From contig BPJB01000001.1 of NCBI GenBank assembly GCA_026004395.1, positions 713,226 through 777,225 on the forward strand: a DNA stretch of 64,000 bases, given 5' to 3'. The notes below the pieces were generated by a model, which worked only from the letters and a program-made list of their open reading frames with translations, was not told the DNA's origin and ran no database searches. Both the position numbers and the translations under genes were made by a program. Numbering within the stretch: the stretch's first letter is position 1; each line of letters opens with the position of its first letter. The DNA comes from Patescibacteria group bacterium (GTDB lineage: Bacteria > Patescibacteriota > Microgenomatia > Levybacterales > UBA12049). This document shows positions 18,523 through 49,449 of this stretch, piece after piece.

Positions 18523-18658
18523 ATGTTAATCGCCTCAAATGTTATAAAACTCAAAATATTGTTTAGGCATGTATCTAATTATAGCTTAGTCTCAATGACC
18601 CACAATGTAGGTAAACCAAAATAAACTGCAAATTTTAATAAATTTAACAACTATAAGT

Positions 18659-19555
18659 ATGAATGATTATCGCTATACACAGTTAAAAGAAATAGAAAAG
18701 AAAATAGAGGAAACCAAAACTCTACTGCAAGATCCTTCATTGGCAGAACTTGCAAAAGAGGAACTCGATTCTTTGGAAATACAAAAAAAAGCTATTGAAG
18801 AAAGTCTCAAACATTCCCAAGAAGAAGAACGATCAGATGACTTAGACAACAGAAACGTAATTCTTGAAGTAAAAGGGGCTGCTGGAGGAGATGAGGCAAA
18901 TATTTTTGCTGATGAGCTTTTGAGAATGTATATGAGATACGCTGAAAAAAAAGGCTTGAAAACAGAGTTTTTGGATGACAATGTTTTAAAAATATCAGGT
19001 AAAGGAGCGTTTAATGTATTTAAATACGAGGCTGGAGTACATCGTGTCCAGAGAGTTCCCAAAACAGAAAAAAAGGGTCGTATTCATACATCAACTGTTA
19101 CTGTATCAGTACTGCCAGAACTTCAAGATATAGATTTACACATTAATCCGGAAGATATTGAATTTGAAGCATTCCGATCGGGAGGACATGGTGGACAAAA
19201 TGTTAACAAAGTCTCAACAGCTGTACGTCTCATTCACAAACCCACAGGACTTGTCGTTACTTCTCAATCGGAAAGATCTCAAGCCCAAAATCGAGAAATT
19301 GCCATGACACTTCTTCGCGCACGACTCTGGGAACAAGCTGTTGAAAAACAGCAAAAAGAATATGCCTCCCTAAAAGCTACCCAAGTAGGAAGAGGTATGC
19401 GAGCTGAGAAAATTAAAACCTATAACTTCCCCCAGGACCGCATGACAGATCATCGACTTGGTAAATCATGGAGCAATCTTGCTGCTATTCTTGATGGAGA
19501 TATCCCCGAAGAACGTCCTACTGATAATATGCGAAAAGAAGAAGCATCAGAATAA
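18659..19555 (+). CDS. prfA: Peptide chain release factor 1 (short form)
   Basis: GGQ motif ([20 protein letters not shown]) and an RF1-type P-x-T tripeptide ([17 protein letters not shown]), not the SPF of RF2. The N-terminal domain is shorter than in E. coli RF1. Confidence 0.85.
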
Positions 19556-19646: not shown

Positions 19647-21333
19647 CTATTGGAGATATTCCATATCTTTCGCTTTAAATTTCTCAATAATCTCTAAATG
19701 GTTATTACTTATTAGAATTTTTGCTAGATGATGTCCTCCAGCTAAATGAGGAAGTACAACATAATCTGCTCCAGCCTTGTATAGAGCTTTTGCATCTTCT
19801 GCTTCATATGCCATTACAACAATTGTTGCTTTTTTGTTCTTATGTAATAATCCTTCAATGAGCAATAAATTATCTTCAAGATCAGGAACAGTCGAAATAA
19901 CAAGTTTTGCCTTTTCAAAACCAACACGTTCTTGAATTTCAGGATCTGAAATATCTCCAAAGATGACATGATGCTCTTTTTCTTGCAATCTCTTAACAAT
20001 ATCAGGATCAAAATCTACTACTAGAATCTTCTCTTCAGTATTTTTAAGTGCATGCAGAATACTTTGTCCCATTTGATGACCACCAACAATAATGACATGA
20101 TTTTCCAATAACTTAAAGTTATTGGAAGAAACAAAATCACTATGTTTGCCTTGTCGAAGCTCAAGAAAGGAAAGATAATGACTAAAATAGCGATAGATTT
20201 TATTAGTACCCTGAATTAGATATGTCGATCCTACAAAAGTAATCATAGCTACAATTAGAAATAACGTTGTTACCTCATTGGAGATAACTCCTTTTTGATT
20301 GCCAATAAACATAATAATAAGGCTAAATTCAGAAATTTGAGCTAGACTAATTCCCACAAAAAATGATGTTCTCTTTCTAAAACCCATTAACCCTGTTATC
20401 AACATAACTATAGCTGGCTTAAGTATTATTACAAAGAAAGAAAAAATCAATGCAGGCAAAATTAAAGATGATATGCTAGTAAACTTCATCTCAAGCCCAA
20501 GCATGACGAAAAAGATTGTTATAAAAAAATCACGAAGTGCCTTCATACGAGCAACAATCTGATAATTTTCAGCACTTTCAGCCAAAGCAAGTCCTGCAAG
20601 AAAACCGCCAATTTCAATAGAAAACCCTATAAGAGGGGACGTAACTACAGCAGTTAATGCAAAAACCCACGCTAAACTAAAAAGAAAAAGTGATTCGGAT
20701 GAGCGAGCAATGCTGTGAAGAACTTTTGGGAATAGATACTTACTTAAAACAATTATCCAACCAAACAATACAATAGACTTTAAAAACACTAAAAGAATTT
20801 GCAAAATAAGTTTTGATGACTCACCTGAAATACTTGTTAGAAAAATAATAGTCATGACTGCAAAAAAAATCCTGCAGCAAGAGAATTCCCAATGCCAATT
20901 TTCCATGAAGACTATTGATATCCTTTTTATCTGAAAGAAGCTTAACAATAATAATTGTGCTTGAAAAAGAGAGTGCAATTGCAATATAAATACTCACAAT
21001 ATTTGAAAAACCAAGCAGTAAAGACAAAATAAAACCGAAAACAAAAGTCAAACCCATCTGCACTGTACCTGCCAAAACTGCTGTCTTACCAATCGAACGA
21101 AGTTCTTTAAGCTTAAGTTCCAATCCAAGCATAAAAAGTAAGAAAGTGATACCAAGCTGACCTAGAGTTTTCAAAGAATCTTGGTGTTGAAGGTGGAAAA
21201 AGCCTGCTGGGCCTAGCAAAACACCAGTAGCAATATACGCTAAAATCGGAGGCTGCCTTAAGTATCTAAAAGTGATATTCAAAATAGAGGCAACGATAAT
21301 AATGGCTGAAATTTCAATAAAAATTGCATCCAC
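19647..21333 (-). CDS. KefB-like CPA2 cation:proton antiporter with C-terminal TrkA-N domain, split by a frameshift at an A8/T8 homopolymer (20862-20869)
   Basis: ORF 20821-21333 encodes N-terminal CPA2 TM helices and ORF 19647-20984 continues the TM domain and carries the TrkA-N Rossmann domain (HVIIVGGHQMGQ). On the minus strand, reading T7 instead of T8 gives the continuous sequence LLLQDFFAVMTIIFL. This is either a sequencing artefact or a genuine frameshift. Confidence 0.65.
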
Positions 21334-21498
21334 ATCTTTAGTTTAACAAATTACTTCTTAATTACAAATTCCTTTTAGAATTAGATTTGAAACATCAGCA
21401 GATTTGTATCTACTCTTCTCTACTTAATGAACAATTGATACTACTGCGCTAATTAAATAAACAAAAATAAATTGCTGTAAGACAAATTTTTTGCTAAG

Positions 21499-28164: not shown

Positions 28165-28665
28165 TCAGAATGGTATATCATCCGGAGGAACCATCTCTTC
28201 ATCTGTCGACGATGATGATTCTCCAGATTTAGACTGCTTAGGTGCAACGTTTTCCTCTTTAACTTTAGTTGAATTTGAAGAAGCAGATGGTTCTGCTTTT
28301 TCCTCCAACTCATCTGTCTTTGCAGCTTGTCCAGGTCTATCCAGTAAGATCATATCGTCTATTACTACCTCTGTAACTGATCTTTGTTGTCCATCTTGCC
28401 CAGACCAATTTCTTGTCGAGAGTCGCCCTTCAACATAGACTTTTCGACCTTTGACCAGAAATTGACTGCAAAGTTCTGCAAGCTTATTCCAGGCAACTAT
28501 ACGATGGAATTCAGTCTCTTCATGTTTCTCACCTGTATCTGTGGTCCAAGACCGATTTGTAGCTAATCCAAATGTACAAACAGCTGTACCTTGCGGTGTA
28601 TAACGTAGCTCAGGATCTCTTGTAAGATTACCAATTAACTGAACTCTATTTAAACTTCGTGCCAT
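28165..28665 (-). CDS. ssb: Single-stranded DNA-binding protein
   Basis: OB-fold N-terminus (MARSLNRVQLIGNLTRDPELRYTPQGTAVCTF), an acidic tail ending in DDIPF, and the classic rpsF-ssb-rpsR context. Confidence 0.92.
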   Translation of the reverse strand: MARSLNRVQLIGNLTRDPELRYTPQGTAVCTFGLATNRSWTTDTGEKHEETEFHRIVAWNKLAELCSQFLVKGRKVYVEGRLSTRNWSGQDGQQRSVTEVVIDDMILLDRPGQAAKTDELEEKAEPSASSNSTKVKEENVAPKQSKSGESSSSTDEEMVPPDDIPF

Positions 28666-28680
28666 ATTATTTATAATACC

Positions 28681-28968
28681 TTATTTTGTTCTTAATAACA
28701 AAAAACGCAAAATCTTATCATTTGCCATAAGACGCTTCTCAAAACCTTTTTCTACTCCTTTCTCCTCATCTGATTCGAGATGTAAAACATGATAAAAACC
28801 AGCAAGCTCATTCTTTATTTTGTACGCAAGAGGCTTTTGACCCCATGACTCTTCTTTGGTCACTTTTACGTTTTTCCCAAGCCATTCTTTAACACTATCA
28901 ATAAGCTTTTTCCTTTCTGCTTCAGAAAGTGAGGCTTTCAGTACTAAAACTAACTCATATAGTCGCAT
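28681..28968 (-). CDS. rpsF: 30S ribosomal protein S6
   Basis: MRLYELVLVLKASLSEAERKKLIDSVKEWL... matches the S6 family. It is the first gene of the rpsF-ssb-rpsR operon, and no rplI follows. Confidence 0.9.
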   Translation of the reverse strand: MRLYELVLVLKASLSEAERKKLIDSVKEWLGKNVKVTKEESWGQKPLAYKIKNELAGFYHVLHLESDEEKGVEKGFEKRLMANDKILRFLLLRTK

Positions 28969-29511
28969 ATGTTGCCTTATAATAGCAAATATAAGTCTAC
29001 AATAGCAAGTAGGAATTATTATTTATTACACTTAGCTTCATTTGTCTGAGAAACGAAATTTGAGTCATCTACTTAGGTATTATTACAAGAATTAGCTTTT
29101 AATAAGAGGAACATTACAGCGTTCCTTTGCATACGTTCACAACGGCATGTATTGTATTTCTAAATTAGCGTAAACTTACTTAAAGTTAGAACAATTCAAT
29201 CTTTGGATCTATTACATTTGAAATTTAGCGTTAAATTATTTATTAAATTAATTATTAACAGAAATTGCCGAAGTGTTCTCATGAAGTTGTTTGTATCATA
29301 TATTAACTTATGATACAGAAATATTTCCTTTTGATTCTATATCTAAATTTTAATTAAAATTCGCTCAGTTGCATCCCAATAAAACTATTTCGTACATCAT
29401 ACCACACCCTAATTTTATTAGAAAAAAGAATTGCTCAAAGTTAAATACCAGTAATCTACTGTAGATTTTAATTAGATCATAATCAGTAGCAAATTATATT
29501 TTTGGTAAAAT

Positions 29512-30534
29512 TTGGTAATATTTGGAAATTTATATAAATCTATGTTAATTCCTCCTAAATATATTTTTACACCAAAAATTTCTCAATATCTTCAGATAAT
29601 CGAGGCTGCAAAAAGCGTAATTGATACAATTAATATTCCTCCTGAAGTGGGGATGAATATAAGACGTCAAAACCTTCTTAAAAGTTCTCTTTTTTCTGCT
29701 CGTATTGAAGGTAATACATTAACTTTGGAGGAATTAACTCGCATACCCTCCAAAGATCAAAAGAAAGTGGAAGTTATAAATATTTTGAAAGGACTCCAAA
29801 TGGTACAAAAAAGAGGAGCACGCGACCTGACCATAACATTTATTAAAGATCTGCATAAAAAAGTCATGTCAGGACTAGGCGAGAAAGGTACCATCTGAAA
29901 CTTCCGTACAGAAATGAGTGCTATTTTCAACAGTGCGGGTATTGCAATCTATCTTCCTCTCCCGCCTCGACTCGTATTTGGACTGATAGAAAGACTACTC
30001 CGCTTTGCAAATAGTTCAAAAGAACAATTTGTACCTGTGCGTTCTGTACTTACACATTATACATTTGAAAAAATTCATCCATTTTTAGATGGTAACGGCC
30101 GTGTAGGAAGACTCCTATTACAATCAGTACTAGAAAAAACAGGATATGGGATGAAAGGACTTATCACAATTGATGAATATTTAGATAAACATCGAACAGA
30201 GTATTACGATCTTTTAGCTCTTGGAGAAAAAGACGTCACAGAGTATGTGGAGTTCATGCTTGAGGGTCTTGCAGAAACAGCTGAGTCAGCGAAAAAAATT
30301 ATACTTAATAAAAAACAAATACGACCTGAAGATTATCTTCTTCCTCCACGCGCTGAAATTTTGGAGATAATAAGAGATCACCAAATAGTATCATTTGATA
30401 CAATCAAACGAAGATTCTTTGCTGTCAATGATCGAACATTAAGATACGATCTCAAAAAACTACAAGATGCAGGGATAATCAAAAAAAGAGGTATAACAAA
30501 AGGAGCTTATTACGAACCTAAGAACCAATCTTAA
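29512..30534 (+). pseudogene. Fic/Doc-family (AMPylase-type) gene interrupted by a single in-frame TGA at 29896-29898
   Basis: ORFs 29512-29898 and 29914-30534 are in the same frame (offset 402 = 3x134) and separated only by the TGA. The read-through sequence is ...GEKGTI-[TGA]-NFRTEMSAIF...YLPLPP...HYTFEKIHPFLDGNGRVGRLLLQ. This carries the canonical Fic motif HPFx[DE]GNGR, and the TGA sits exactly at the conserved Gly of the G-x-(F/Y)-R element. Confidence 0.7.
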
Positions 30535-31612
30535 ATTCAATTACGTCTCCGTCCTGAACTATATATTCCTTGCCTTCAAACCGTGCTTTTCCAAGTTCTC
30601 TTGCTTTTTTTCGTCCACCTGATACAACATAATCATCAAAACTTATAACCTCTGCTTTAATAAATTTTTTGATGAAATCTGTATGAATTTCTCCTGCTGC
30701 AGTCATTGCGTTAGTTCCTTTCTTTATTGTCCATGCTCTAACTTCCTTCTCCCCTGCTGTAAAAAAAGAAATAAGCCCAAGAGTCTCATAGGCTTTCTGA
30801 ATCAGCTTTTCAAGCCCTGAGTAAGCAAGTCCCATCTCACGTAAATAAGATTTTTGCTCTTCTGGAGACAATGCTGAGAGTTCTTCTTCTACTTTCGCAC
30901 AAACGACCACTATTCGATTCTGAGATATCTGAAAAAGATTAGCATAACGCTGTTTTATAACTTCTTGTTGAATAAGCGATTCATCATCCTCTGAGACATT
31001 GAGAATTATAATTTCAGGCTTTGCGGTCAAAAAAAACATCTTCTTGACTATCTCACTCTCTTCATCACTGAACTTCATCTGTCGCACCAATACGCCAGCA
31101 TTCAAATCATCAATAATACGTTTGAACAATATCTTCTCTGCTTGATTTTTGATTCGTGCCTCATGATTTCTGGCAGTCTGCAAATCTGCAAGTAATAGCT
31201 CTGTTTGAATCACTGCATAATCAGTTTCAGGATCACTGCTTCCCTCTCGAATGATTTTTTCATCTGTAAATGCTCTTACTACATGAGCAATGACACTCAC
31301 TTCTCGAATATGAGATAAAAATTTATTCCCCAACCCTGATCCCTCATGCGCACCCTTTACCAATCCTGCAATATCAACAAATTCAACAGTTGCTGGTTTG
31401 ATCGGAGGAAGCTCTACCATTTTCTCTTCTTCTTTGGTAATCTCAGCCAATTTTTGCAACCTCTCATCCGGTACTGGGACTACTCCTATGTTTGGCTCAA
31501 TGGTGGCAAACGGATAATTTGCAGCAAGTGCCTGCTGCTTCTTTAAAAGTGCATTAAAAAGAGTACTTTTGCCAACATTGGGCAATCCAATAATACCTAC
31601 GCTCAAGTTCAT
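30518..31612 (-). CDS. ychF: Ribosome-binding ATPase YchF (Obg-family GTPase)
   Basis: G1 motif GIIGLPNVGKSTLFNAL, G3 DIAGLVKGA and a C-terminal TGS domain. Confidence 0.9.
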   Translation of the reverse strand: MNLSVGIIGLPNVGKSTLFNALLKKQQALAANYPFATIEPNIGVVPVPDERLQKLAEITKEEEKMVELPPIKPATVEFVDIAGLVKGAHEGSGLGNKFLSHIREVSVIAHVVRAFTDEKIIREGSSDPETDYAVIQTELLLADLQTARNHEARIKNQAEKILFKRIIDDLNAGVLVRQMKFSDEESEIVKKMFFLTAKPEIIILNVSEDDESLIQQEVIKQRYANLFQISQNRIVVVCAKVEEELSALSPEEQKSYLREMGLAYSGLEKLIQKAYETLGLISFFTAGEKEVRAWTIKKGTNAMTAAGEIHTDFIKKFIKAEVISFDDYVVSGGRKKARELGKARFEGKEYIVQDGDVIEFKIGS

Positions 31613-31870
31613 ATCCCAACTTTTAGGTAGCTAGCTGGTATGCAAGTGATATCTGTATCCATACTTCTACCCCGTTCCTTTATTTTAAAATAACTTTCTC
31701 TATTAGAGCTCAAAGAAATGTAATTTCCTGCAAGCATTATTACCTCTGCCTGATAAATAACTTTGGCTCAAACAATAAAAAAACTTTCTTATCTCCACTA
31801 GTCACAGCCATAAAGCTTAATTGCTATAATGAATACTAATAATAATAAAAAAGTCGTTATAACTCAATAA

Positions 31871-33349
31871 ATGGACACTAAACAATCAAAAACAAAACTT
31901 TTCTTAAGGAGATTATTAATTAATTGGGATTTTTTTGTTCTTGGTTTTTTAATTCTCGCATATATTTTTATCCTTGTAACACTTTCAATTAAAAGACATG
32001 ATGCTTTTGCTTCACGGTTTGACCTTTCAAACATGGATCAAACTCTTTGGTATACACTACATGGTCACTTCTTCCAGCTTCGTAATCCCGATGAACTAAT
32101 GTCTCGTTTTTCAATTCATGCAGACCTTATTCTTGTGTTACTCTCCCCTCTCTACCTTATCTGGGATGACGTACGTATGCTTATTGCCTCTGAGTCAGTC
32201 TTTTTAGCGCTTGGTGCTATACCTGTTTATCTTCTCTCATTAAAACTGTTAAAGAATAAAATTATTTCTCTTGTTATTGCTGCAGTATATCTTCTAAATC
32301 CAGGCATGCAATGGACTGATATTTATGATTTTCATGGTGTATCACTTGCTATACCATTTATTCTCTATGCCTTCTACTTCGCTTACATTAAAAGATGGAT
32401 TTGGTATGGAGTATTTGTTTTGCTTGCCCTTTTAACAAAAGAAAATATTTCACTCATTATTGCTATGCTCGGAATTGCAGTTTTTTTTGTTTTTAAAAAA
32501 AAATGGATAGGATTGGCAACATTTATTATTGGAATTGTATGGTTTTTTACTATGGTGAATGTAGTAATGCCTTATTTTACTCCATCAGGGAAGCATTGGG
32601 CATTAGAAGGAGTGAGTGATGTAGGTGATGATCCTTTATTTAGTGTCATTAAGAAACAAATGGATCTGAATACTTTTTTACGTACATTTGTTTTCAACAA
32701 AGAAGCACAAGAGTATTACATTCTTTTATTAAAACCTTACGCTTTTCTACCTCTAATTGGACTTCCGTGGATTCTTATTTCAGCACCTGAGTTTGCAATT
32801 AATATCCTCAGAGGCACAACAATGATTGTGTTCCATTATGACAGCGGTATTATACCCGGACTTGTTTTAGGAACCATTTTTGGTATGTATTATGTTCAAT
32901 GGATCATAACTCATTTTAGGTTTACTAAAAAATACACAACAATTGTTATGTATGTAGTGGCTGCATTACTTCTAACGGCTGCATTGAGGGTCAATTATCA
33001 TTATAGTCCTTTACCTACTACACCATCTTGTTCCTGCTATATCTATAATGTAACGCGTGAAGATAGGGAATTTGAGAAAGTATTGCAGAGCATCCCTAAA
33101 GATGCATCTATTACAGCATCTCTGGAAATACGCCCGCATGTAAGTCATCGTTTTCATGCATATACCGTTCCTAGCGCAACAGAGTCAGCACAATTCATTG
33201 CTTTGATTACTCAAAACAGATTAATCAGTAACTACGATCCAAAAGAGTATGAAAATAAACTAATACCTATTCTTTTGAAAAGTAAAAACCACAAATTAAG
33301 ATATAAAAGCGAACATTTCTACTTGTTTGAAAAACTGAACTTCAAGTAG
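31871..33349 (+). CDS. DUF2079-like polytopic membrane protein (putative GT-C-type glycosyltransferase)
   Basis: 492 aa with more than 10 TM helices. The conserved F-D-L-x-x-x-D-Q-x-x-W element (RFDLSNMDQTLW) is typical of DUF2079/GT-C membrane proteins. Confidence 0.4.
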   Translation: MDTKQSKTKLFLRRLLINWDFFVLGFLILAYIFILVTLSIKRHDAFASRFDLSNMDQTLWYTLHGHFFQLRNPDELMSRFSIHADLILVLLSPLYLIWDDVRMLIASESVFLALGAIPVYLLSLKLLKNKIISLVIAAVYLLNPGMQWTDIYDFHGVSLAIPFILYAFYFAYIKRWIWYGVFVLLALLTKENISLIIAMLGIAVFFVFKKKWIGLATFIIGIVWFFTMVNVVMPYFTPSGKHWALEGVSDVGDDPLFSVIKKQMDLNTFLRTFVFNKEAQEYYILLLKPYAFLPLIGLPWILISAPEFAINILRGTTMIVFHYDSGIIPGLVLGTIFGMYYVQWIITHFRFTKKYTTIVMYVVAALLLTAALRVNYHYSPLPTTPSCSCYIYNVTREDREFEKVLQSIPKDASITASLEIRPHVSHRFHAYTVPSATESAQFIALITQNRLISNYDPKEYENKLIPILLKSKNHKLRYKSEHFYLFEKLNFK

Positions 33350-33725
33350 ATGAAGGATTTAACGAATATTAGAATTCTATCTGAGTAGAAAACTTGTATA
33401 TATACACTTACAAAAAGATAAAACTCTACTTAGGCTTATGTTGAGAAATTCCACGCAGCAAATGGTATTAAGTTTCCTCGACATAGGATGATCGTCGTTA
33501 CCTAAAAAATCTTTTAGCTTTGTAAACAACCAATAAATCTCTTAGAAAGTATTTCAAACCTCACCATTTATGGAATTGATTTGGTAATCTTTCCGAATTC
33601 GTCCCTCTTGACTATGATACCCTTTTTAGCTTAAAAATCTTAAACCCAAACTTAATTTATAAATTTGGTGACTGTAAACCACATATGGACAACTTTTTCA
33701 GCATCTTGAAAAGCATATTAACTCC

Positions 33726-33761
33726 TTGCCAAGTATACAGGTATACCTGTATACTTGGCAA
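33726..33761. promoter_or_regulatory. Perfect 36-bp palindrome (18+18), candidate operator/recombination site, 70 bp upstream of ORF 33832
   Basis: ttgccaagtatacaggta|tacctgtatacttggcaa is an exact reverse-complement palindrome with no spacer. It is not followed by a T-tract, so it is unlikely to be a simple intrinsic terminator. Confidence 0.6.
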
Positions 33762-33831
33762 AATACCATCCATCCTATCTAAACAGTTAAAAAGTATGAT
33801 ATAATAAGAGCACAGAATATAATTTCTCTAT

Positions 33832-35115
33832 ATGAGTTTAAACCCTGAAAATTTGAGACAAATTGGCATAAATGAAGACGGGAAAAATTCCCAGTTGTCA
33901 GAAAATATCCATGAAAAATTAGCTGCTAAAATAATTGAACGTATTGATAAAAAGGTTGAAAGATCTAAATTAGTAGTAATTGTAGGTCGAAAGGATAACG
34001 ATCAGCCAATTGATTACAAAAATGAATCAAATATTTTATTGGCTAGTATTCATCAACGACTCATAGAGGCATTCTCTATATACGGAAATTCTCATACACC
34101 TTTTCTATTTTATTCTCAAAAACAATATGACCAATTTAAAGAACATGGACTTTTAACTCTTTCAGAACAGCAAGCTCACATAGCATTTTCAGTTTTAGAG
34201 GCAGAAGATCAAGCAGAAGAAATCTTTCAAAATTTAACTTCTACAACGGTAGAGAGAATAAAAACAGCAGAACAAGAAGGCAACTTGTCTGATTACCTCA
34301 TGTGGCAATTGGTACCTAGAGAGCAATACTCTTATGAAAGAATAATAAATGAAACAGTCTACAACGCAATTTCTGGAAAACAAAATGTAACACTGGAAGA
34401 TTACATTGAAGAAATTGAACAGGAAAGAAAACAGTTTGCAGCAGAAGCTAGATTGATAAGACGTATGTATGAGATGTTTGATAAACTACCCGATAATGAC
34501 AAGATAAAAGTTGCCATTCTCAGACTTCCTGCAGAGGTGGATCTCCGTCGCCCTCAAAGGGTGCTCACATACTTCCCTCCTCACAGCTACAATAGATGGT
34601 CAAATGATATAGACGAAACTAACAGAGAGGCATTTACTATGTATTGTGTAACCTATGCTCCTTGTCTCCAACATGCATTTGATAGTTTATATAGATTGAC
34701 AAGAAAGAAAACACCTGATGGGCAATCTATACCAAGAGCATTCTATGTCACCTCTCAGCATGCACAAGGTATAGAGCATGAATCAAATTACCCTGAATCT
34801 GCACGCCGCTTTTTGGAGATTTCTTTTGCAGATGGTACCCCACCCATACCTGCAATTAGAGCAGAAATGCATGATAAATACCCAGGAGTAACTTTTATTC
34901 AAAAAGCGACAATACTCAGAGATGATATTGAACCAAATCTTGTCTTCGATGGTTCAAGATTACACTTTATCCTCGGACATGATGAAGATGGTACAAGGAT
35001 ATATCAAAATCAAATTCCTTATGTTTTGAATGCACTCACTGGTGGAGTAAGTAATGCTTATAATATTCGGGTTGATCAGTTTTTAAATAGAGAGCAGAAC
35101 ACATCAATAAAATGA
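33832..35115 (+). CDS. Hypothetical cytoplasmic protein (427 aa), no recognisable domain
   Basis: Long clean ORF with typical coding periodicity, appearing higher in GC than its flanks by eye. No TM segment, signal peptide or known catalytic motif was recognised by eye. Confidence 0.5.
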   Translation: MSLNPENLRQIGINEDGKNSQLSENIHEKLAAKIIERIDKKVERSKLVVIVGRKDNDQPIDYKNESNILLASIHQRLIEAFSIYGNSHTPFLFYSQKQYDQFKEHGLLTLSEQQAHIAFSVLEAEDQAEEIFQNLTSTTVERIKTAEQEGNLSDYLMWQLVPREQYSYERIINETVYNAISGKQNVTLEDYIEEIEQERKQFAAEARLIRRMYEMFDKLPDNDKIKVAILRLPAEVDLRRPQRVLTYFPPHSYNRWSNDIDETNREAFTMYCVTYAPCLQHAFDSLYRLTRKKTPDGQSIPRAFYVTSQHAQGIEHESNYPESARRFLEISFADGTPPIPAIRAEMHDKYPGVTFIQKATILRDDIEPNLVFDGSRLHFILGHDEDGTRIYQNQIPYVLNALTGGVSNAYNIRVDQFLNREQNTSIK

Positions 35116-35118
35116 AAG

Positions 35119-35769
35119 CTAAAAAAGTGTATCACCGTTTTCTTTGAGCCATTTTATCTGTTGACGGTATGACGGCTGGAGTTTCCTCACTTTCATCCAA
35201 AAAATTTGAGAATGATCTTTTACTATAGTATGCGCTAATTCATGAATAACAACGTAATTAATAACCAAAATTGGAGCCATAACAAGCCGCCAGTTAAATT
35301 GAAGTCTATTATCTTTAGAACATCTTCCCCACTGTGACTTTGTATCAGAAAATGTAATACTCCTAAAATTCGTTTGCATCTCTTCTGCATATTTTTTAGC
35401 TTGCTCTGTGATAATTTGTTTGGCTTGTTGCACATACCATGCAGTAAGTTCTTTTTCCTTGCGAAAAAGAAGTGATATCGGAAAAAGCAACCTATTTTCA
35501 GCAACAGAAATATGCTTATAGTTGCCACATGTGAGAGTCAGAATCTGACCGAGAAAAAGGTACTGATTTTCCTCTCTCTGCAATGCTCTCTTCGCAAGGA
35601 GCATGCGACGTTTAGCAATCAATTCACTCTGTTGTTCAACAAACTGTTCAATATTATGCTTAGACAAGTTCAGTGGTGCTTTGACCAGAAGTTTACCATC
35701 AGGTTGGATATATAGTGCCAGTGTTCTTCTCTTTGAGCGAACAAGCGTAAACTCTGGAATATTAAACAT
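35119..35769 (-). CDS. YgjP/DUF45-family zinc metallo-hydrolase (M48/WLM-like HExxH)
   Basis: C-terminal VINYVVIHELAHTIVKDHSQIFW is the DUF45 H-E-x-x-H signature. The N-terminus MFNIPEFTLVRSKRRTLALYIQPDGKLLVKAP is typical of this family. Confidence 0.65.
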   Translation of the reverse strand: MFNIPEFTLVRSKRRTLALYIQPDGKLLVKAPLNLSKHNIEQFVEQQSELIAKRRMLLAKRALQREENQYLFLGQILTLTCGNYKHISVAENRLLFPISLLFRKEKELTAWYVQQAKQIITEQAKKYAEEMQTNFRSITFSDTKSQWGRCSKDNRLQFNWRLVMAPILVINYVVIHELAHTIVKDHSQIFWMKVRKLQPSYRQQIKWLKENGDTLF

Positions 35770-35789
35770 GGAATTGTTCTCCTAGTGTG

Positions 35790-36950
35790 TTATAGTTTTT
35801 GCGGATTAATTCTTATAATCTTATCATCGCCTGCAACTGGAATTCCTCTTCCATCTTTATTACTCGTGGTAATATATAAATAACCGTCAGGACCTACTAC
35901 GGCATCCCGTATCCTTCCAAACTTCCCCTTAAAGTGTGCAATAACGCTTATAGGGTTTGCTGTAATCTTCGCCTCATAAAGAGATTGTCCCCTCAATCCG
36001 CCAAAGAATAACACATCTCCAATTATTGCCGCTGACGCGGGAGCCCATGTAGTAGTCACACCGGATGTTACTACAGGAGTGACCATCTCCTCTCGTCTTT
36101 CTGTGCCTTGAATTATGGGCCAGCCATAATTTTTGCCTGGTTCGATTTTGTTTATCTCATCGTTGCCAGATTGTAATCCTGAGGGACCATGCTCTGTTGA
36201 CCACAAATTACCATTGCGATCCCACGCAATTCCTTGTGGATTGCGATGACCATAAGAAAATATCAGATTACCAAATGGATTGCCAGGAGCTGACTCTCCT
36301 CTATCTGTTATTCGCAGGATTTTCCCCGCCAAGCTGTCTTTAGATTGGGCTAGAGAGGGCTGTTGAGCATCACCAGTTGTAACATAAAGAAATTTATCAG
36401 GACCAAACGCAATTCTTCCACCGTTATGATTAGTTGCACCTGGAATGCGATCCACAACAATCTCCATATTTTGCAGTTTATTATTCTCATATTTCATACG
36501 TACAACCCTATTGAAAGTATTGTTTTTATCAACGCTATACGTGTAATAAAAATATACATATCTATTTGAAGCAAACTCAGGATGCAAAGCAATACCCAGT
36601 AATCCTCCCTCTCCCACCTCTTTTACATCTCGTATTTCCGCAACAAGAGTAGAATTACCGTCTCGGTCAATATGCAACACCGTTCCTTTGCGCTCAGTTA
36701 CCAGCATACTCCCATCAGGCAAAAAGGCAATTCCCCATGGAGTATCTAGATGATCTGCCACAATAGTAATTTCTTGAGTATCATTTTCCTCAACTAAAGA
36801 TTTTTCAGTATTTATAGATTCTCTATTACTATTAAATATTAAAAGTAAATAAGGCTTTATATCCTTGAAGATCACTATTAGGCTAACAAATATTAAAACA
36901 AGAATAATAAAGAATTTTTTCATTGTACCTATTGTAGCACTCCTTACCAC
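35790..36950 (-). CDS. Soluble PQQ-dependent glucose/sorbosone dehydrogenase-like beta-propeller (YliI-like)
   Basis: N-terminal TM anchor. Propeller motifs include DTPWGIAFLPDG, NHNGGRIAFGPDGFLYVTTGD and GHRNPQGIAWD. Confidence 0.6.
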   Translation of the reverse strand: MVRSATIGTMKKFFIILVLIFVSLIVIFKDIKPYLLLIFNSNRESINTEKSLVEENDTQEITIVADHLDTPWGIAFLPDGSMLVTERKGTVLHIDRDGNSTLVAEIRDVKEVGEGGLLGIALHPEFASNRYVYFYYTYSVDKNNTFNRVVRMKYENNKLQNMEIVVDRIPGATNHNGGRIAFGPDKFLYVTTGDAQQPSLAQSKDSLAGKILRITDRGESAPGNPFGNLIFSYGHRNPQGIAWDRNGNLWSTEHGPSGLQSGNDEINKIEPGKNYGWPIIQGTERREEMVTPVVTSGVTTTWAPASAAIIGDVLFFGGLRGQSLYEAKITANPISVIAHFKGKFGRIRDAVVGPDGYLYITTSNKDGRGIPVAGDDKIIRINPQKL

Positions 36951-37019
36951 TAATTACATAAAAAGACTATCTAGCAAATTATCAAAAGATTAAGTACAAT
37001 GAATAAATATTGATTATTT

Positions 37020-37724
37020 ATGGAAATTATCCAGTTTCTTCTCCACTTGGATCAGCATATCTCAGCAATTATTGATGCGTTTGGAATATATACCTATATT
37101 ATTCTTTTTCTGATTGTTTTCGCTGAAACTGGTTTCGTTGTTACTCCTTTCCTGCCAGGTGATTCGCTTCTTTTTGTAGTTGGAACACTTGCAGGTAGTG
37201 GCTTTTTGAACATCTGGATTGTTTATATTTCGCTTCTTTTGGCAGCAATTCTTGGTGATAGTATTAATTACTGGATAGGACATCATACTGGACCAAAAAT
37301 ATTTGCAAAAGAAAACTCACGACTCTTTAACAAAGCCTATCTTGAAAAAACTCGTGAGTTTTACGCCAAGCATGGTGGCAAAACAATAATTCTTGCAAGA
37401 TTTTTACCTATTATTCGAACATTTGCACCTTTTGTTGCAGGAGTTGGGAAAATGCATTACTCAACCTTCATTTTCTACAATATTATTGGAGGGTTTATAT
37501 GGGTAACATCTCTGACTTTTGCAGGATATTTTTTCGGAGGACTTCCTTTTATCAAAGAGAATTTTGAATACGCAGTTATTGGCATAATAGTAATATCTAT
37601 TATGCCAATGATTATTGAGTACATCAAACACAAAAAAGGTCATCAAGTTACCAAAAAGCAACTTGAGTCTCTCACCTACAAAGATATTCAAAAAACTTTC
37701 AAAGAAGAACATCTTACTGACTGA
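37020..37724 (+). CDS. DedA/SNARE-associated (VTT-domain) membrane protein
   Basis: The DedA signature FLPGDSLLFVVGTLAG and ARFLPIIRTFAPFVAGV. Confidence 0.8.
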   Translation: MEIIQFLLHLDQHISAIIDAFGIYTYIILFLIVFAETGFVVTPFLPGDSLLFVVGTLAGSGFLNIWIVYISLLLAAILGDSINYWIGHHTGPKIFAKENSRLFNKAYLEKTREFYAKHGGKTIILARFLPIIRTFAPFVAGVGKMHYSTFIFYNIIGGFIWVTSLTFAGYFFGGLPFIKENFEYAVIGIIVISIMPMIIEYIKHKKGHQVTKKQLESLTYKDIQKTFKEEHLTD

Positions 37725-37732
37725 GACTCAGA

Positions 37733-38794
37733 TCACCGCAAATACTTCTTAAAAAAATCAACAGTTCTCTGCATTGCGAGTTGGAAACTCTCTCCTTCGA
37801 TATTATGTCCTCCACTCTCATATTCGAAAAACTCATGAGGTACTGCTGTTTTCTCCAAGAGAGTTAGAAGATCCCTACTATAACCTATGTTTACAACAGC
37901 ATCGTCAACTGCATGATGAAGTTGTATCGCTCCTTTTATCTCAGAAAGAAAAGATGTTGGAGCAACTTGTCTCCAAAAAATACTCTGTGCACTGGGACTA
38001 CCGTATTTCTTAAAAAGCTCATTTCTTTTACTCCTAAGCAGGGACATATTTTGTGGAGGACGATAGCTTAAGTCCTGAATTCCGTACTTTTGCATATCAA
38101 CGTAAGAATATACCGCACCAGCCCAAATAACAATTGCTGGAATATCAGGCTTAACCGCCATAGAGCGAAGCAAAATATTACCAGCCATACTATGCCCCCA
38201 CATACCAATGGCATTCGGATTAACAAAGTCAGCATTTTTTAAGGCTTCGTAGGCATTTAGCGTATCCACAACATAATCTGAACCATAATATCCTCCCCCT
38301 GGCTTACCTTCTGAATCACCATGCCCTCGAAGATCTATCTTCAGTACGACAAATCCATTTCTCGCTAGATAATCCACATATGCAGAATAAGATCTTCCAT
38401 TAGTAATGTATTGCTCAGGAGGAATATAACCGTGGACAAATACAATAGCCGGCCATCCCTTCTTAGGCATATCCCCACGAGGAATGGTAAGAAGAGCATT
38501 TATCTTCAACCCATCTGATGTATAACTCGTCAAGTAGGACAAATATTGACCGTTGTCCTCTAAAAATTTTAGCTCACCCAGCTTGCTTTCATACTTACGT
38601 GATCTAAGAAAGGGAATTGTCATTTCCTCAAAATAACTAAATTCTGTCTTATCTTGGGGATTAACTGAAGAATTTAAATTTTTTCGCAAAAATTCGGTAT
38701 GCGGTGAAGAAAACAAAACAATTAACAAATAAATTATCAAAAAGAAACTTAGAATTAACAAAAGCGTTTTTATTGATAAATAATTTTTTCTCAT
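37733..38794 (-). CDS. Alpha/beta-hydrolase (S9/dienelactone hydrolase-like), N-terminally membrane-anchored
   Basis: GxSxG nucleophile elbow (GHSMAGN), a C-terminal H in HHAVDDAVV, and an N-terminal TM helix. Confidence 0.6.
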   Translation of the reverse strand: MRKNYLSIKTLLLILSFFLIIYLLIVLFSSPHTEFLRKNLNSSVNPQDKTEFSYFEEMTIPFLRSRKYESKLGELKFLEDNGQYLSYLTSYTSDGLKINALLTIPRGDMPKKGWPAIVFVHGYIPPEQYITNGRSYSAYVDYLARNGFVVLKIDLRGHGDSEGKPGGGYYGSDYVVDTLNAYEALKNADFVNPNAIGMWGHSMAGNILLRSMAVKPDIPAIVIWAGAVYSYVDMQKYGIQDLSYRPPQNMSLLRSKRNELFKKYGSPSAQSIFWRQVAPTSFLSEIKGAIQLHHAVDDAVVNIGYSRDLLTLLEKTAVPHEFFEYESGGHNIEGESFQLAMQRTVDFFKKYLR

Positions 38795-38880
38795 TGCTGA
38801 TATTAGCTTAGGAAGATTAACACAGAAATAATAACTCTGAGTAAATACTAAATTATCTACTCTATGTCAATTAGAAATTT

Positions 38881-39351
38881 TTATTCAACAATCAATTTCC
38901 CCACCATTCCCATTTGTCTATGATTGCCAATCGAGCAATAATACTCAAACTCACCCTTTTTAGCGGCAACAAACTCAATTGTATCCTCTTGTCCAGCTGA
39001 AAGCTGCTTTGTGCGAACATTGTAGTCATCTAGTACAAAGTCATGAAAGCCTTCAGCTATTTTTAGCGTAACTTTTACAGTATCGCCTTGTCTTACTCGT
39101 ATCTCTTTGACATCATATCTAAAATTTGAAGCTGTGAGTGTAAATTCTTTTGTTGATACCTCTTCTTTATTCGCAGAGGGTAAGGACTCCTCACTTGTTG
39201 GATTGATAGACGTTGGTGTAGGTGTGGTAATAGCTTGCTGATTTTTAGATCCACTATTCGGAGTGTTAGTTGCATTATTAGTAAGCAACAAGAATAAACT
39301 ACTTAAAAAAACGATAACTATCAATATGATGATAATCGATTTAATGTTCAT
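38881..39351 (-). CDS. Membrane-anchored type-1 copper cupredoxin (second copy)
   Basis: Strong SD (aaggaggtgtaATG). TM anchor IIIILIVIVFLSSLFLLL, a Thr/Pro-rich linker, and a cupredoxin with the ligands H...C-x-x-x-x-H-x-x-M (FHDF...YYCSIGNHRQMGM). Confidence 0.65.
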   Translation of the reverse strand: MNIKSIIIILIVIVFLSSLFLLLTNNATNTPNSGSKNQQAITTPTPTSINPTSEESLPSANKEEVSTKEFTLTASNFRYDVKEIRVRQGDTVKVTLKIAEGFHDFVLDDYNVRTKQLSAGQEDTIEFVAAKKGEFEYYCSIGNHRQMGMVGKLIVE

Positions 39352-39432
39352 TATTACACCTCCTTTCTTAAGAGTTCAGTTTAAACAAACTCTACAAAAA
39401 AACAAGTACTTATCTAAAGATAAAACAAATAG

Positions 39433-39912
39433 ATGTATAATTCAAATACGCAAATGAAGTCATATAATCTACAAATTCCCTTTGTCACAACATCATCAGA
39501 CAAAATTAAAACTCTTATTCAACTTTCTGAATGCAAAAGAGAAGGAAAGGTAGTAGATCTAGGATCAGGTGACGGACGTGTCGTAATAGCTCTAGCCAGA
39601 GCAGGCTTTGATGTTGTTGGATTTGAAATCAGAAAAGAGCTTGTTGAGAGATCTCTGCAGAAAATAGCAGCATTAGGTTTAGATCAAAAAATTACCATTT
39701 ATCACCAAAACTTTTGGGATGCCAATCTATCAGAGTTTGATCTGATTTATATTTATGGAATGCAGTCAATGCTTGCCAAGCTTGAAGAGAAGCTTGAGAC
39801 AGAGATGAAAGTAGGCGCAAAATTCATCTCGAATATCTTTCCTCTTCCGCGTTGGAAACCTCAAAAAGTAAAAGACAATTTTTACGTTTATACTAAAAAA
39901 AATAAGATCTAG
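39433..39912 (+). CDS. Small class I SAM-dependent methyltransferase
   Basis: Motif I VVDLGSGDGRVVIALARAGFDVVGFE. Confidence 0.6.
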   Translation: MYNSNTQMKSYNLQIPFVTTSSDKIKTLIQLSECKREGKVVDLGSGDGRVVIALARAGFDVVGFEIRKELVERSLQKIAALGLDQKITIYHQNFWDANLSEFDLIYIYGMQSMLAKLEEKLETEMKVGAKFISNIFPLPRWKPQKVKDNFYVYTKKNKI

Positions 39913-44004: not shown

Positions 44005-44388
44005 CTAAGTATAGCTCCTAATTATTGTCAGTAACTCTTCTATATCAAATGGTTTTGCCAAAAAAGCGTCTGCACCACACTCACGGATTGATTTCTCAGC
44101 TCTAGGATGAGCTGAGATCAAAATAACTGGAATATGTTTGGTATGATGATCGTTTTTAAGTATTTTAGTAATTTCTCTTCCATCCTTACCTGATAGAAGG
44201 ACATCCATAATAATAAGATCGGGCAAATCTTCTTCTTGATTTTTTAAGTTTTCTGCATAATCTCCTCTTTCAGAAGTAATCACATGATAACCATTATCAG
44301 AAAGAAGGAGCGATAGGGCATCAAGAATATCAGCATTATCATCAATAACAAGAATTGTTGTTTTTGAAGATTTATTAATATTTTTCAT
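44005..44388 (-). CDS. CheY-like response-regulator receiver domain
   Basis: TILVIDDNADILDALSLLLSDNGYHV...DLIIMDVLLSGKDG...ISAHP. It has its own ATG but is also the in-frame continuation of the upstream kinase remnant. Confidence 0.6.
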   Translation of the reverse strand: MKNINKSSKTTILVIDDNADILDALSLLLSDNGYHVITSERGDYAENLKNQEEDLPDLIIMDVLLSGKDGREITKILKNDHHTKHIPVILISAHPRAEKSIRECGADAFLAKPFDIEELLTIIRSYT

Positions 44389-44390
44389 TT

Positions 44391-45473
44391 TTTTCGCTAT
44401 AGGCAGGATGAGAGTAAATGTGGAGCCTTTACCTTTTTGGCTTTTGACTTTTATTATACCACCGTGTTTTTTTGCAATTTCTTGAGATAGATACAGACCT
44501 ATACCAAGCCCGGGAAATGTCCTCTCTTCTATATTGTTTCCTTAATAGAAACGTTCGAAAATTTTATCCTTACTGGTTGGATCTATACCAATCCCAAAAT
44601 CTGTAACTGAAATATATATTTTTCTTTTTGAGTGTGAGAGTTGAATAATAACTTTGTTAGCTTTTGGTAAATATTTAATAGCATTTGTAAGCAAATTAAT
44701 TATGATTTGTCCTATGCGGTCTTTATCTTCATATACTTTCCCCTTTGTCTTCCCTTCAATAATCCATCTATTACTTGAAGTTATCTTCTGCAAATACTCA
44801 ACAATATCCTTGACTATTGAATCAATGGAAAAATAACTCTTAGAATATGGAAGTTTACCTATCTCTATTTTGGAAATATCTAAAAGATCATGGATTAATT
44901 TTGTCAACATATTTATTTGATCATCCATTTTAAGCAGATATTTTCTAGTGTTGTATCTCCTTTTTCTCTTGCTTGTTGTATAAGAACCTGATTATAGACT
45001 TTAAGACTGGTAACAGGTGTGTTAAGTTCATGAGATGCAACAGAGATGAATTCATCCCGCACAGCTACCGCATCCTGTGCTTCTTTGTAAAGCCTTGCAT
45101 TATCAATCGCCAATGAGAGACGGCTCCCCAATTCTTTAATCATTACAAAATCAGTGTGTAAAAATCTTCTTTTTGACTCTGCGTTGACAAGCGTTATTCC
45201 ACCAATTACCTTCCCTTGTGAAAAAATTGGGACAATAATTGCAGAAAAAACTCCCAAACTTCTTAAAAGAGTAAGTTGTCGTTTTGTCACGGAAGCAGCA
45301 ACCAACATCTCATCTGTGATAACTGGATAAAATTCTGCTTTACCTGTTCGTATCACATTTGGCAGTCCTCGTGAGTCTGCGAGATTAAATAAGCCTTGGT
45401 CGCTTTTTAACTTCCATCTATTTATGCATCGCCTCCTCGACTGATTCCAGGGCTTTTTTCCGTATTCTGCCAT
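44391..45473 (-). pseudogene. Remnant hybrid histidine kinase (partial GAF - HisKA - HATPase_c, continuing in frame into the REC domain) disrupted by a 1-nt frameshift near 44913-44928 and an in-frame TAA at 44542-44544
   Basis: Pieces found: a GAF C-half (VIGGITLVNAESKRRFLHTDFVMIKELGSRLSLAIDNARLY), the H-box SHELNTPVTSLK, then MDDQINMLTKLIHDLLDISKIE in a shifted frame, then the N-box LLTNAIKY and D/G-box VTDFGIGIDPTSKDKIFERFY-[TAA]-GNNIEERTFPGLGIGLYLSQEI...GKGSTFTLILP. This runs straight on in the same frame into the REC ORF. The N-terminal half of the GAF domain is missing. Confidence 0.6.
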
Positions 45474-45598
45474 AATAACTCAGCCCTTTTCTTCTAAAGG
45501 AGATTAGACCAATATGAACAAAAATAAAGAGTTTGTAAGAAATCGTAAAGAAAGAATTGTGTTGTTTTCTCTTCTTGTGTATAAATATATAATCCACT

Positions 45599-47384: not shown

Positions 47385-47469
47385 GGAGAGATGACCGAGT
47401 GGTTTATGGTAGCGGTTTACTAAACCGCCGTCTCGCAAGGGACCGTGGGTTCGAATCCCACTCTCTCCG
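47385..47469 (+). tRNA. Type-II (long variable arm) Ser-like tRNA; the anticodon reads ACU in the hand fold (GCU expected for AGY codons)
   Basis: Acceptor ggagaga/tctctcc with discriminator G (Ser-like). D-stem acc/ggt of 3 bp. Anticodon stem gcggt/accgc with loop ttACTaa. Variable stem gtctc-gcaa-gggac. T-arm gtggg-ttcgaat-cccac. No encoded CCA. It is followed by a GC-rich hairpin plus T-run at 47480-47530. The architecture matches E. coli tRNA-Ser position for position. Confidence 0.75.
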
Positions 47470-47796
47470 CAAGTTAGGTAATGAAGCAGTTGGCTCGCCG
47501 GCTACGCGGGCTCGCCAGCCGTTTTTGAATACAAAATGGCTTTCTATTTTTGGATTATCTCTCATCCCATATCAAACCGCCGGCATAGGTTTTTGTTCCG
47601 GCAGTAGTTAAGAATTGCTGTAATTTCTTCTGATCAACAATTTTATTCTAACATGTTAAATTTGATTTTGTCTGAATAGTCTCAGATTTTATTTTGGTCA
47701 GAAGCAGGTTTTTCTTATTTTCCTTGCCTAATTTATTTGGTATCATTATGTTGAAAGCAGAGATTATTAATACCGCAATAACACACTATCAAGTTA

Positions 47797-48009
47797 TTGA
47801 AAATATGGAAAGAAAAAATTACATTGGAATATATAAAGAAATTCCTTACAAAACAAGGCTTATCGCTGGAAGCTTTTACCAAGAAATACGGAGTGGAATA
47901 CACCACCCTGACAAAAATTGAAAATGAAGTTATTAAAAAGCCCCTTGTTTTGGTAATTGCTAAAATTGCTAAGGCATTAGGTGTAAATATTGAAGAGTTA
48001 ATAAAATAA
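47797..48009 (+). CDS. XRE-family HTH controller (C-protein-like) gene preceding the methyltransferase
   Basis: 70 aa. LTKQGLSLEAFTKKYGVEYTTLTKIEN is an HTH_3 motif. The stop lies 1 nt before the MTase ATG, the typical arrangement for an R-M controller protein. Confidence 0.55.
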   Translation: MKIWKEKITLEYIKKFLTKQGLSLEAFTKKYGVEYTTLTKIENEVIKKPLVLVIAKIAKALGVNIEELIK

Positions 48010-48010
48010 T

Positions 48011-48847
48011 ATGCAAAACATAACAACTATAAAACAAAGTAAAAAAGATGAATATACGAGAGAAACAAAACCATACTTTGAATATAATAACATTATTATT
48101 TACAAAGATGACATTTTAAAGATCTCTAATATTCAGAATAATTCAATAGATTTAATTGTTACCTCACCACCTTATAATGTTGATATTCATTATAATTCTC
48201 ACATTGATAATTTAACTTATAACGATTATTTAGAATTTACAAAAAAATGGATTAAGAAATGTTTTGAATTGACAAAGGATGATGGGCGTTTTTGTCTCAA
48301 TATACCACTAGATAAAAATAAAGGAGGTCAACAGTCGGTTTGCGCTGATATCACTAAAATTGCAAAGGATGTAGGTTGGAAATATCACTCTACTATAATC
48401 TGGAATGAAGGAAATATCTCTCGAAGAACAGCATGGGGATCGTTTATGTCTGCATCTGCACCTTATGTTATTGCTCCTGTAGAAGTAATATTAGTTCTAT
48501 ACAAAAAGAATTGGAAAAAAATCAGTGGAAGTAAAAAAAGTGATATTACAAAAAAAGAATTTATGGATTGGACTAATGGAATTTGGAGTTTTGGTGGAGA
48601 AAGTAAAAAAAGAGTTGGCCATCCCGCACCCTTTCCTATAGAATTACCTCGCCGTTGTATAAAACTTTTTTCTTATGTAGGTGATACAATATTAGATCCA
48701 TTTTTAGGAAGTGGTACAACACTTATTGCGGCTTATCTAAATAAGAGAAAAGGCATAGGTGTTGAGATAGATAAGGAATATTGTGATTTAGCAATCAAAC
48801 GATTAAAACAAGAAGCACAAATTAATCAAATTAATTTTAATTTATAA
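48011..48847 (+). CDS. Beta-class DNA methyltransferase (N4-cytosine/N6-adenine, motif IV S-P-P-Y before motif I)
   Basis: Motif IV DLIVTSPPYNV near the N-terminus and motif I ILDPFLGSGTT near the C-terminus (D12/N6_N4_Mtase order). Confidence 0.8.
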   Translation: MQNITTIKQSKKDEYTRETKPYFEYNNIIIYKDDILKISNIQNNSIDLIVTSPPYNVDIHYNSHIDNLTYNDYLEFTKKWIKKCFELTKDDGRFCLNIPLDKNKGGQQSVCADITKIAKDVGWKYHSTIIWNEGNISRRTAWGSFMSASAPYVIAPVEVILVLYKKNWKKISGSKKSDITKKEFMDWTNGIWSFGGESKKRVGHPAPFPIELPRRCIKLFSYVGDTILDPFLGSGTTLIAAYLNKRKGIGVEIDKEYCDLAIKRLKQEAQINQINFNL

Positions 48848-48856
48848 AATAGAAAT

Positions 48857-49447
48857 ATGAGTAAAGGTGATAAAAAGTCTATTGGCGATTTAATAAAAGA
48901 GTATTTTAAAAAACATCCTAATCAAGACCTTCAACATGGTCCTGTTGTTGATTGGGTTGAAGATAAATATTTAAAGTTGTACGGAAAGAAACCTCGTGAC
49001 ACATGGAGAAATATTAGAAAACTTCACGAGGAAGGTTTTTTGATTAAAGTTAAAAAAGGTATTTATCGTTATGATCCTGAGTATGTGAAGCAAAAAGAAA
49101 TTGACGATTTTACACCAAAACAAAAAGAGCAAATTTTGAAAAGAGATGGCTATAAATGTGTAATTTGCGGTAGTGGCAGAAAAGAAGGAGTCGAATTACA
49201 CGTAGATCATATTAAGCCAAAATACTTGGGTGGAAAATCTACTATTGAAAATGGTCAAACATTATGCGCTCAACACAACTTTATTAAAAAGACTCTGAAA
49301 CAAACAGAAACCGGGAAGAAAATGTTTATTCGTCTTTATGAGTTAGCAAAAAGTGAAAGGAATGAAGAACTAAAGAAATTTTGCGCAGACATTTTAGAAA
49401 CTTATGAAAAATACAATATTAATGGTCACATAGTCTGGAAAAGATAA
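48857..49447 (+). CDS. HNH-family nuclease, putative restriction endonuclease partner of the MTase
   Basis: HNH motif GYKCVICGSGRKEGVELHVDHIKPKYLGGKSTIENGQTLCAQHN. It sits immediately downstream of the MTase. Confidence 0.65.
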   Translation: MSKGDKKSIGDLIKEYFKKHPNQDLQHGPVVDWVEDKYLKLYGKKPRDTWRNIRKLHEEGFLIKVKKGIYRYDPEYVKQKEIDDFTPKQKEQILKRDGYKCVICGSGRKEGVELHVDHIKPKYLGGKSTIENGQTLCAQHNFIKKTLKQTETGKKMFIRLYELAKSERNEELKKFCADILETYEKYNINGHIVWKR

Positions 49448-49449
49448 TT

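Follow-up and report, generated by a model that had tools for sequence, protein, structure and literature searches.

The locus examined here raises the question of why a gene for a Fic protein in a patescibacterial genome should carry an in-frame TGA exactly where its relatives encode a conserved glycine, and whether that codon is translated, divides the gene into two working parts, is an error of the assembly, or marks a dead gene. We addressed this within a 64-kb stretch of DNA (64,000 nucleotides), referred to here as the window. Positions 29896–29898 read TGA in the context ...GGT ACC ATC TGA AAC TTC CGT ACA GAA..., and the ORFs on either side (29512..29898 and 29899/29914..30534) share one frame with this codon as their sole separator, just as the original prediction described them. 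Reading through from the ATG at 29542 yields a 330-aa Fic protein (330 codons, counting the internal TGA) in which the stop takes the place of residue 119, ahead of both the flap and the catalytic motif. The parts of the gene are as follows.

29542..30534, + strand: whole Fic pseudogene, of class II and ending in a winged-helix domain; it shares 94% identity from end to end with P0001, an intact protein of 330 aa

29542..29898, + strand: upstream fragment, a 118-aa ORF with the N-terminal helices and the inhibitory motif only

29695..29715, + strand: inhibitory-helix motif SARIEGN, invariant in 18 aligned sequences and opposite 'VAIEGNTLTL' of human FICD

29896..29898, + strand: in-frame TGA in place of Gly119; ancestral GGA, with a G-to-T transversion at 29896

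29914..30534, + strand: downstream fragment, a 206-aa ORF from Met125 with the flap, the Fic motif and the winged helix, lacking the first part of the Fic domain

30076..30111, + strand: catalytic Fic motif HPFLDGNGRVGR, unbroken but 3' of the stop

The downstream ORF has been deposited as GIW61885.1, 'hypothetical protein KatS3mg089_0737' (MAG KatS3mg089, a 1,084,101-bp contig), and the 118-aa upstream ORF is annotated as a gene with no Pfam match both on a separately assembled Logan contig and on a contig of more than 1 Mb.

Assignment of the interrupted gene to the Fic family does not depend on either piece separately. The Pfam Fic profile (PF02661) spans the stop in the read-through protein (62.2 bits against a cut-off of 24, 8.4e-17, residues 96–196), and weak matches to HTH_20 and HTH_DeoR at residues 270–315 correspond to the winged helix. 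Three diagnostic elements are present, namely SARIEGN, the G-x-F-R-T element, in which the stop occupies the position of the G, and the catalytic loop HPFLDGNGRVGR, and all three can be aligned to Fic proteins of solved structure (PDB 4RGL, E = 1e-18; human FICD, E = 4e-15), with the stop lying opposite the G of 'AGRFRT' in FICD. The catalytic loop (residues 179–190) conforms to HxFx(D/E)GNGRxxR, and columns H179 to R190 are invariant in the alignment; S52-A-R-I-E56-G-N58 conforms to the class II motif (S/T)xxxE(G/N) and lies in the same gene, upstream of the Fic core. The read-through protein thus resembles class II Fic AMPylases such as human FICD/HYPE, Shewanella SoFic and PDB 4RGL in its catalytic motif HPFxDGNGRxxR, in having the inhibitory helix N-terminal on one and the same chain, in the G-x-F-R-T element that precedes the flap and in the 'PP' of the flap itself, and SoFic, judging from its NCBIfam name only, has a C-terminal winged-helix region too. 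The similarity is nevertheless distant, with the SoFic-type equivalog NF046030 scoring only 58.1 bits against a cut-off of 550 and the likeness confined to the core; moreover, unlike these enzymes, the window copy is interrupted at codon 119, and residues that are invariant in the family have been replaced in it. A functional Fic needs a frame open through the flap and the catalytic loop, and here the frame is closed at codon 119.

We searched a collection of 5.8 billion proteins for homologues, which gave 5,746 matches, and analysed the best 120. All 120 are uninterrupted, with lengths of 302–364 aa (nearly all 324–341 aa) and identities of 61–94%, and those with names belong to Levy-, Davies- or Shapirobacteria or the 'Microgenomates group', with the exception of a single record, from a soil metagenome, that bears the name of a CoxFIC1 effector. 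The proposal that the stop replaces the conserved Gly of G-x-F-R holds well: the aligned residue is Gly in 117 of these best 120 homologues and in all 17 of the close homologues aligned. The closest homologue among the matches listed, P0001 (94% amino acid identity, intact at 330 aa), is encoded on three contigs (L001, L002 and L003). A scan for related loci among species-representative genomes, one genome per species, returned 80 loci, and Fic is uninterrupted in every one of them; the codon at the aligned site is GGA in 32, GGC in 13, GGG in 10 and GGT in 10, and is never TGA. Lineage-level labels at these loci are Microgenomates or Patescibacteria except for one Bathyarchaeia (an archaeon), and many of the other labels are generic. 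Many public MAG records carrying close relatives of this Fic, often beside rpsF or ychF (L005, L008, L009, L011 and others), are titled 'uncultured Gammaproteobacteria bacterium' or 'Saccharibacteria'; these titles are evidently placeholders or wrong taxon labels for a Microgenomates-type gene.

Comparison with the nearest loci identifies the ancestral codon. The sister locus (L001) is colinear with the window Fic, with 83 differences in 993 nt (91.6% nucleotide identity) and no indels, and it has GGA at the site of the stop, in agreement with the original suggestion that GGA, one substitution from TGA and the commonest codon at this site among the 80 loci, was the ancestral state. The gene order rpsF-Fic-ychF, with ychF convergent and overlapping, is found in L001 and in a second related locus (L002) as it is in the window, and the short L003 shows ychF only. 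A more distant outgroup (L087; FWPU01000390.1) is fully syntenic, with an intact 330-aa Fic and the same ychF overlap. The frame is therefore broken in the window while close orthologs in L001, L002, L003 and L087 are intact at 330 aa, which is the pattern of a pseudogene. The overlap between the 3' ends of Fic and ychF is 17 bp in the window (30518..30534), and it occurs in L001 and L087 as well. We found no second copy of Fic within the 64-kb window that might compensate for the interrupted one.

These comparisons bear on the suggestion, raised with the original prediction, that the gene was acquired from a lineage that reads UGA as glycine and is untranslatable in its present host. Reassignment of UGA to Gly constitutes translation table 25 and is characteristic of Gracilibacteria and Absconditabacteria/SR1, and the position of the TGA, precisely on a conserved Gly where relatives have glycine, is what such an origin would give. 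However, the closest homologues (61–94% identity) are uninterrupted Microgenomates proteins using GGN, no named match is from Gracilibacteria or Absconditabacteria, and the rpsF-Fic-ychF neighbourhood is common to the sister and outgroup genomes. Synonymous divergence of Fic from the sister (dS 0.34) falls within the range of the neighbouring genes (0.13–0.38), as expected of a resident gene, and the sister codon is GGA. A gene from a code 25 organism would also be expected to hold several TGA codons, whereas this one has a single TGA in 330 codons. The likeness to code 25 is limited to one codon in one gene, in a genome from another group of Patescibacteria that uses the standard code and ends genes with TGA. 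Ordinary-code relatives with Gly at the site are also what the original prediction named as refuting a code mismatch. We therefore reject an import of this kind as extremely improbable, and consider the gene to be vertically inherited from ancestors with an ordinary code.

The role of TGA in the host genome was determined from other genes. SSB ends ...DDIPF-TGA, directly after its canonical tail, and CtpB, an M17 aminopeptidase, FTR1 and TspO have TGA stops close to the ends of their Pfam profiles. Of 31 confident genes, 17 end in TAA, nine in TGA and five in TAG, and no internal TGA was found in 11 genes verified against orthologs. Use of TGA as a sense codon would appear as in-frame TGA in conserved genes and as genes that do not end at TGA, and these verified and confident genes show neither. 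TGA is a normal stop in this genome, as had been proposed. GGA is the commonest Gly codon (282 of 642) and so offers a large target for GGA-to-TGA mutation. The sole release factor in the 64-kb window (18611..19555, + strand) best matches RF1 (prfA; 349 vs 400 bits, below the NCBIfam cut-offs) and lacks about 40 N-terminal profile positions; there is no RF2 in the window.

The window contains two tRNAs, Leu-CAA and Ser-ACU, and no tRNA-Sec or tRNA with a UCA anticodon was found within it. The serine tRNA (47385..47470, + strand) is a curiosity of its own. It is a type II tRNA with Ser features (a long variable arm and G73) and a canonical 7-nt loop, UUACUAA, and has the anticodon ACU (A34) in place of the usual GCU. 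The same stem-loop and anticodon occur on an independent metagenome contig, FWPU01008186.1 (L085, positions 180–215), which excludes an error as the origin of the ACU anticodon. AGT (134) is used as a codon, and so is AGC (67).

One way in which the gene could remain functional is by read-through or recoding of the UGA, whether a near-cognate tRNA inserts Trp, a suppressor inserts Gly or selenocysteine is incorporated; a potentially toxic AMPylase might thereby be kept at a very low level. The frame is open for 211 codons past the stop, the catalytic motif is unbroken, and UGA is the leakiest of the bacterial stop codons. Selenocysteine recoding, for which a search had been recommended, resembles the present case in having an in-frame UGA in a frame otherwise open. 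It differs in that the window Fic has no SECIS-like hairpin 3' of the TGA (the 70 nt from the TGA fold no better than shuffled sequences; MFE z = -0.01), that no tRNA-Sec is present in the window and that homologues have Gly at this position, and neither Cys nor Sec; we regard selenocysteine recoding as unsupported. The same observations count against recoding in general, and so does the absence of a stop at this site from all 80 related loci.

A further possibility is that the interruption has created a split pair, in which the 118-aa fragment with the inhibitory motif acts in trans on the 206-aa catalytic fragment. Class I Fic modules of the VbhT/VbhA type encode the antitoxin in a small gene of its own and keep the Fic domain complete, and the break in the window likewise leaves inhibitory and catalytic motifs on two consecutive ORFs (SARIEGN in the first, HPFLDGNGR in the second), with an ATG for the second only five codons past the stop. 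No Shine-Dalgarno sequence precedes the second ORF, and almost no gene of this region has one, so its lack does not exclude translation. In contrast to the class I arrangement, the break falls inside the Pfam Fic domain (residues 96–196) and not between domains, such that the domain itself is cut. Met125 is inherited, being present also in P0001, and no such split is seen in the 120 best proteins of 5,746 or in the 80 genomes.

Both of these functional readings predict that Fic should still be under selection in the window lineage. We used a three-taxon comparison of the window, the sister L001 and the outgroup L087; the last is a close outgroup and took the place of the distant ones (56–68% identity) of a relative-rate control on YchF, in which 13 of 21 sites were ambiguous. 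Fic accumulated 16 amino acid changes on the window lineage and three on the sister lineage (p = 0.004), with synonymous changes balanced at 19 and 25 respectively, and amino acid and synonymous changes within Fic are distributed differently between the lineages (Fisher test, p = 0.005). For 11 neighbouring genes pooled, the window and sister lineages have 67 and 48 amino acid changes and 156 and 164 synonymous changes, and for ychF there are seven and 11 amino acid changes. Fic has thus been under relaxed constraint on the window lineage, as expected of a pseudogene, although part of the 16:3 asymmetry may be genome-wide, as the neighbours too show a mild excess on the window lineage (67:48).

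The positions of the changes are informative. Among 15 missense changes on the window lineage, six lie at columns at least 95% conserved in the best 120 of 5,746 homologues, and four of these at columns that are 100% conserved.

29650..29652, + strand: E37G, private missense change; column 100% Glu in the 120 homologues

S44N: missense change of the window lineage; column 95% conserved

29959..29961, + strand: P140L, in the 'YLPPPP' flap region; Pro in 119 of the 120 homologues

30043..30045, + strand: A168S, private; column 100% conserved

30172..30174, + strand: E211D, private; column 100% conserved

30346..30348, + strand: R269P, private; column 100% conserved, in 'LLPRRAEIL' just before the winged helix

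This proportion matches the neutral expectation (119 of 330 columns; p = 0.79) and exceeds the family norm of 0.03 by a factor of ten (p = 3e-6), and no homologue among the 120 reaches the ratio seen in the window. The replacement of four invariant residues (E37, A168, E211 and R269) and of P140, on the window lineage only and at the neutral rate, is unexpected for a protein under selection, and we think it very unlikely that read-through or recoding sustains a working Fic. Relaxation extends to both halves of the gene (E37G in the first ORF; P140L, A168S, E211D and R269P in the second), so that, in a further difference from class I modules, both pieces are decaying. Independent function of the two pieces is unlikely, because each has acquired private substitutions of a damaging kind and none of the relatives shows such a split, and the chance that they form a pair acting in trans appears equally slight. 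The remaining sequence indicates that the decay is recent. Whole-gene pairwise dN/dS relative to the sister is 0.08, like that of the neighbours; most of this divergence predates the inactivation, so the value is uninformative alone and the three-taxon comparison was used in its place, yet a ratio still as low as 0.08 implies that the neutral phase was short, a small recent part of the branch, and that the inactivation is young. No further stop or indel has accumulated in the Fic frame, and this, like the low dN/dS, counts against the pseudogene reading.

An alternative explanation for the stop is that it arises from a consensus or base-call error, and that the organism has GGA and an intact Fic. 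The source is a set of PacBio HiFi reads from a hot-spring metagenome, run DRR290133 (PMC11646566; bioRxiv 10.1101/2025.08.20.671380). Three other disruptions in the window are single-base changes in homopolymer length (T7 to T8, T6 to T7 and A5 to A4), which are the typical residual HiFi error and suggest that the consensus may be imperfect, and a Na+/H+ exchanger is otherwise undamaged once its frameshift is corrected (dN/dS 0.063). The Fic lesion, in contrast, is a substitution outside any homopolymer and not the typical HiFi error. The Logan assembly of the same run, built separately, has the same base at 29896 and the same TGA, with 100% identity to the window over 13,842 bp; the two assemblies probably derive from the same reads, and this is therefore agreement between assemblers and not between data sets. 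An exact-pattern scan of genome and metagenome contigs, using a 32-mer with N at 29896, found no near-identical strain with either allele. Other evidence is independent of this base: one miscalled nucleotide cannot create the six additional missense changes that are private to this gene copy and lie where conservation is 95% or more, or a 16:3 lineage asymmetry in Fic that is absent from ychF (7:11), and this pattern argues for a real and recent pseudogene. We therefore judge an error at this position to be unlikely, somewhat less so than the functional readings considered above, and note that testing for lineage-specific relaxation allows a real pseudogene to be told apart from a base-call error here with no recourse to reads.

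The explanation we favour, and hold to be very probably correct, is that this is a native class II Fic of Microgenomates-type Patescibacteria, vertically inherited, recently inactivated by a change of GGA to TGA at Gly119, and drifting almost neutrally since. A G-to-T transversion in the Gly119 codon produced the TGA, and under the standard bacterial code translation stops after residue 118. Neither the flap nor the catalytic HPFxDGNGR loop nor the winged helix at the C-terminus is part of the resulting 118-aa product, which would be incapable of AMPylation; with function lost, the frame has drifted almost neutrally on the window lineage. Presumably no Fic protein is produced, and the population as a whole carries the loss. 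The window copy is thus an inactive representative of a subfamily specific to Microgenomates.

As an event, a young nonsense pseudogene such as this one is ordinary, and it is no sign of an unusual genetic code. Its relevance is mainly to annotation, as the two 'hypothetical protein' ORFs of the deposited MAG should be merged as a Fic pseudogene. A TGA on a conserved Gly in Patescibacteria is not in itself evidence for code 25, and synteny, the sister codon and stop codon usage settle the code question quickly.

In all, four genes in the 64-kb window are disrupted: Fic, a hybrid histidine kinase, the Na+/H+ exchanger and a class A PBP. The hybrid histidine kinase (GAF-HisKA-HATPase_c-receiver; 44005..45479, - strand) is broken into three ORFs, by a frameshift in HisKA near 44935–44950, probably A5 to A4, and by an in-frame TAA (44542–44544) at 'FERFY*G' in HATPase_c, between profile positions 62 and 67; gene disruption by in-frame stops is thus not specific to TGA here. 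The Na+/H+ exchanger with TrkA_N (19647..21342, - strand) has an extra T at about 20869, T8 compared with T7 in L001, where the intact ortholog is 561 aa; the corrected window gene is under normal constraint, and the indel could be either a frameshift of very recent date or an artefact of HiFi sequencing at the homopolymer. The class A PBP (transglycosylase plus transpeptidase; 53526..55713, + strand) shifts frame at a T7 run (55103–55109), with the KTGTT motif and the remainder of the transpeptidase domain in the +1 frame, as seen in the window sequence alone. The three homopolymer frameshifts may all be HiFi artefacts. It is possible but doubtful that the Fic knockout belongs to a series of recent inactivations in this patescibacterial hot-spring genome, which is complete at 1.08 Mb; if the homopolymer frameshifts are real, the lineage would be in an active phase of gene loss, or transcriptional slippage at poly-T/A would rescue the genes, either of which would be unusual for genomes already streamlined.

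Two further features of the window were observed. An 8.2-kb MAG contig of L002 (GCA_964405165.1, CAYOMX010000016.1) matches window positions 28663..39765 with an identity that differs by segment, 99.4% at 37375..39765, 95% at 34699..37307 and 89.7% at 28663..31742, and it lacks about 3 kb of window sequence between its matching segments; this suggests that related strains have undergone recombination or rearrangement, or else that the contig is chimeric. Adjoining the tRNA-Ser gene, a tight cluster at 48005..50355 (+ strand) encodes an N6/N4 DNA methylase, an HNH endonuclease and an Mrr-type restriction endonuclease, and may constitute a small restriction-modification or defence islet.
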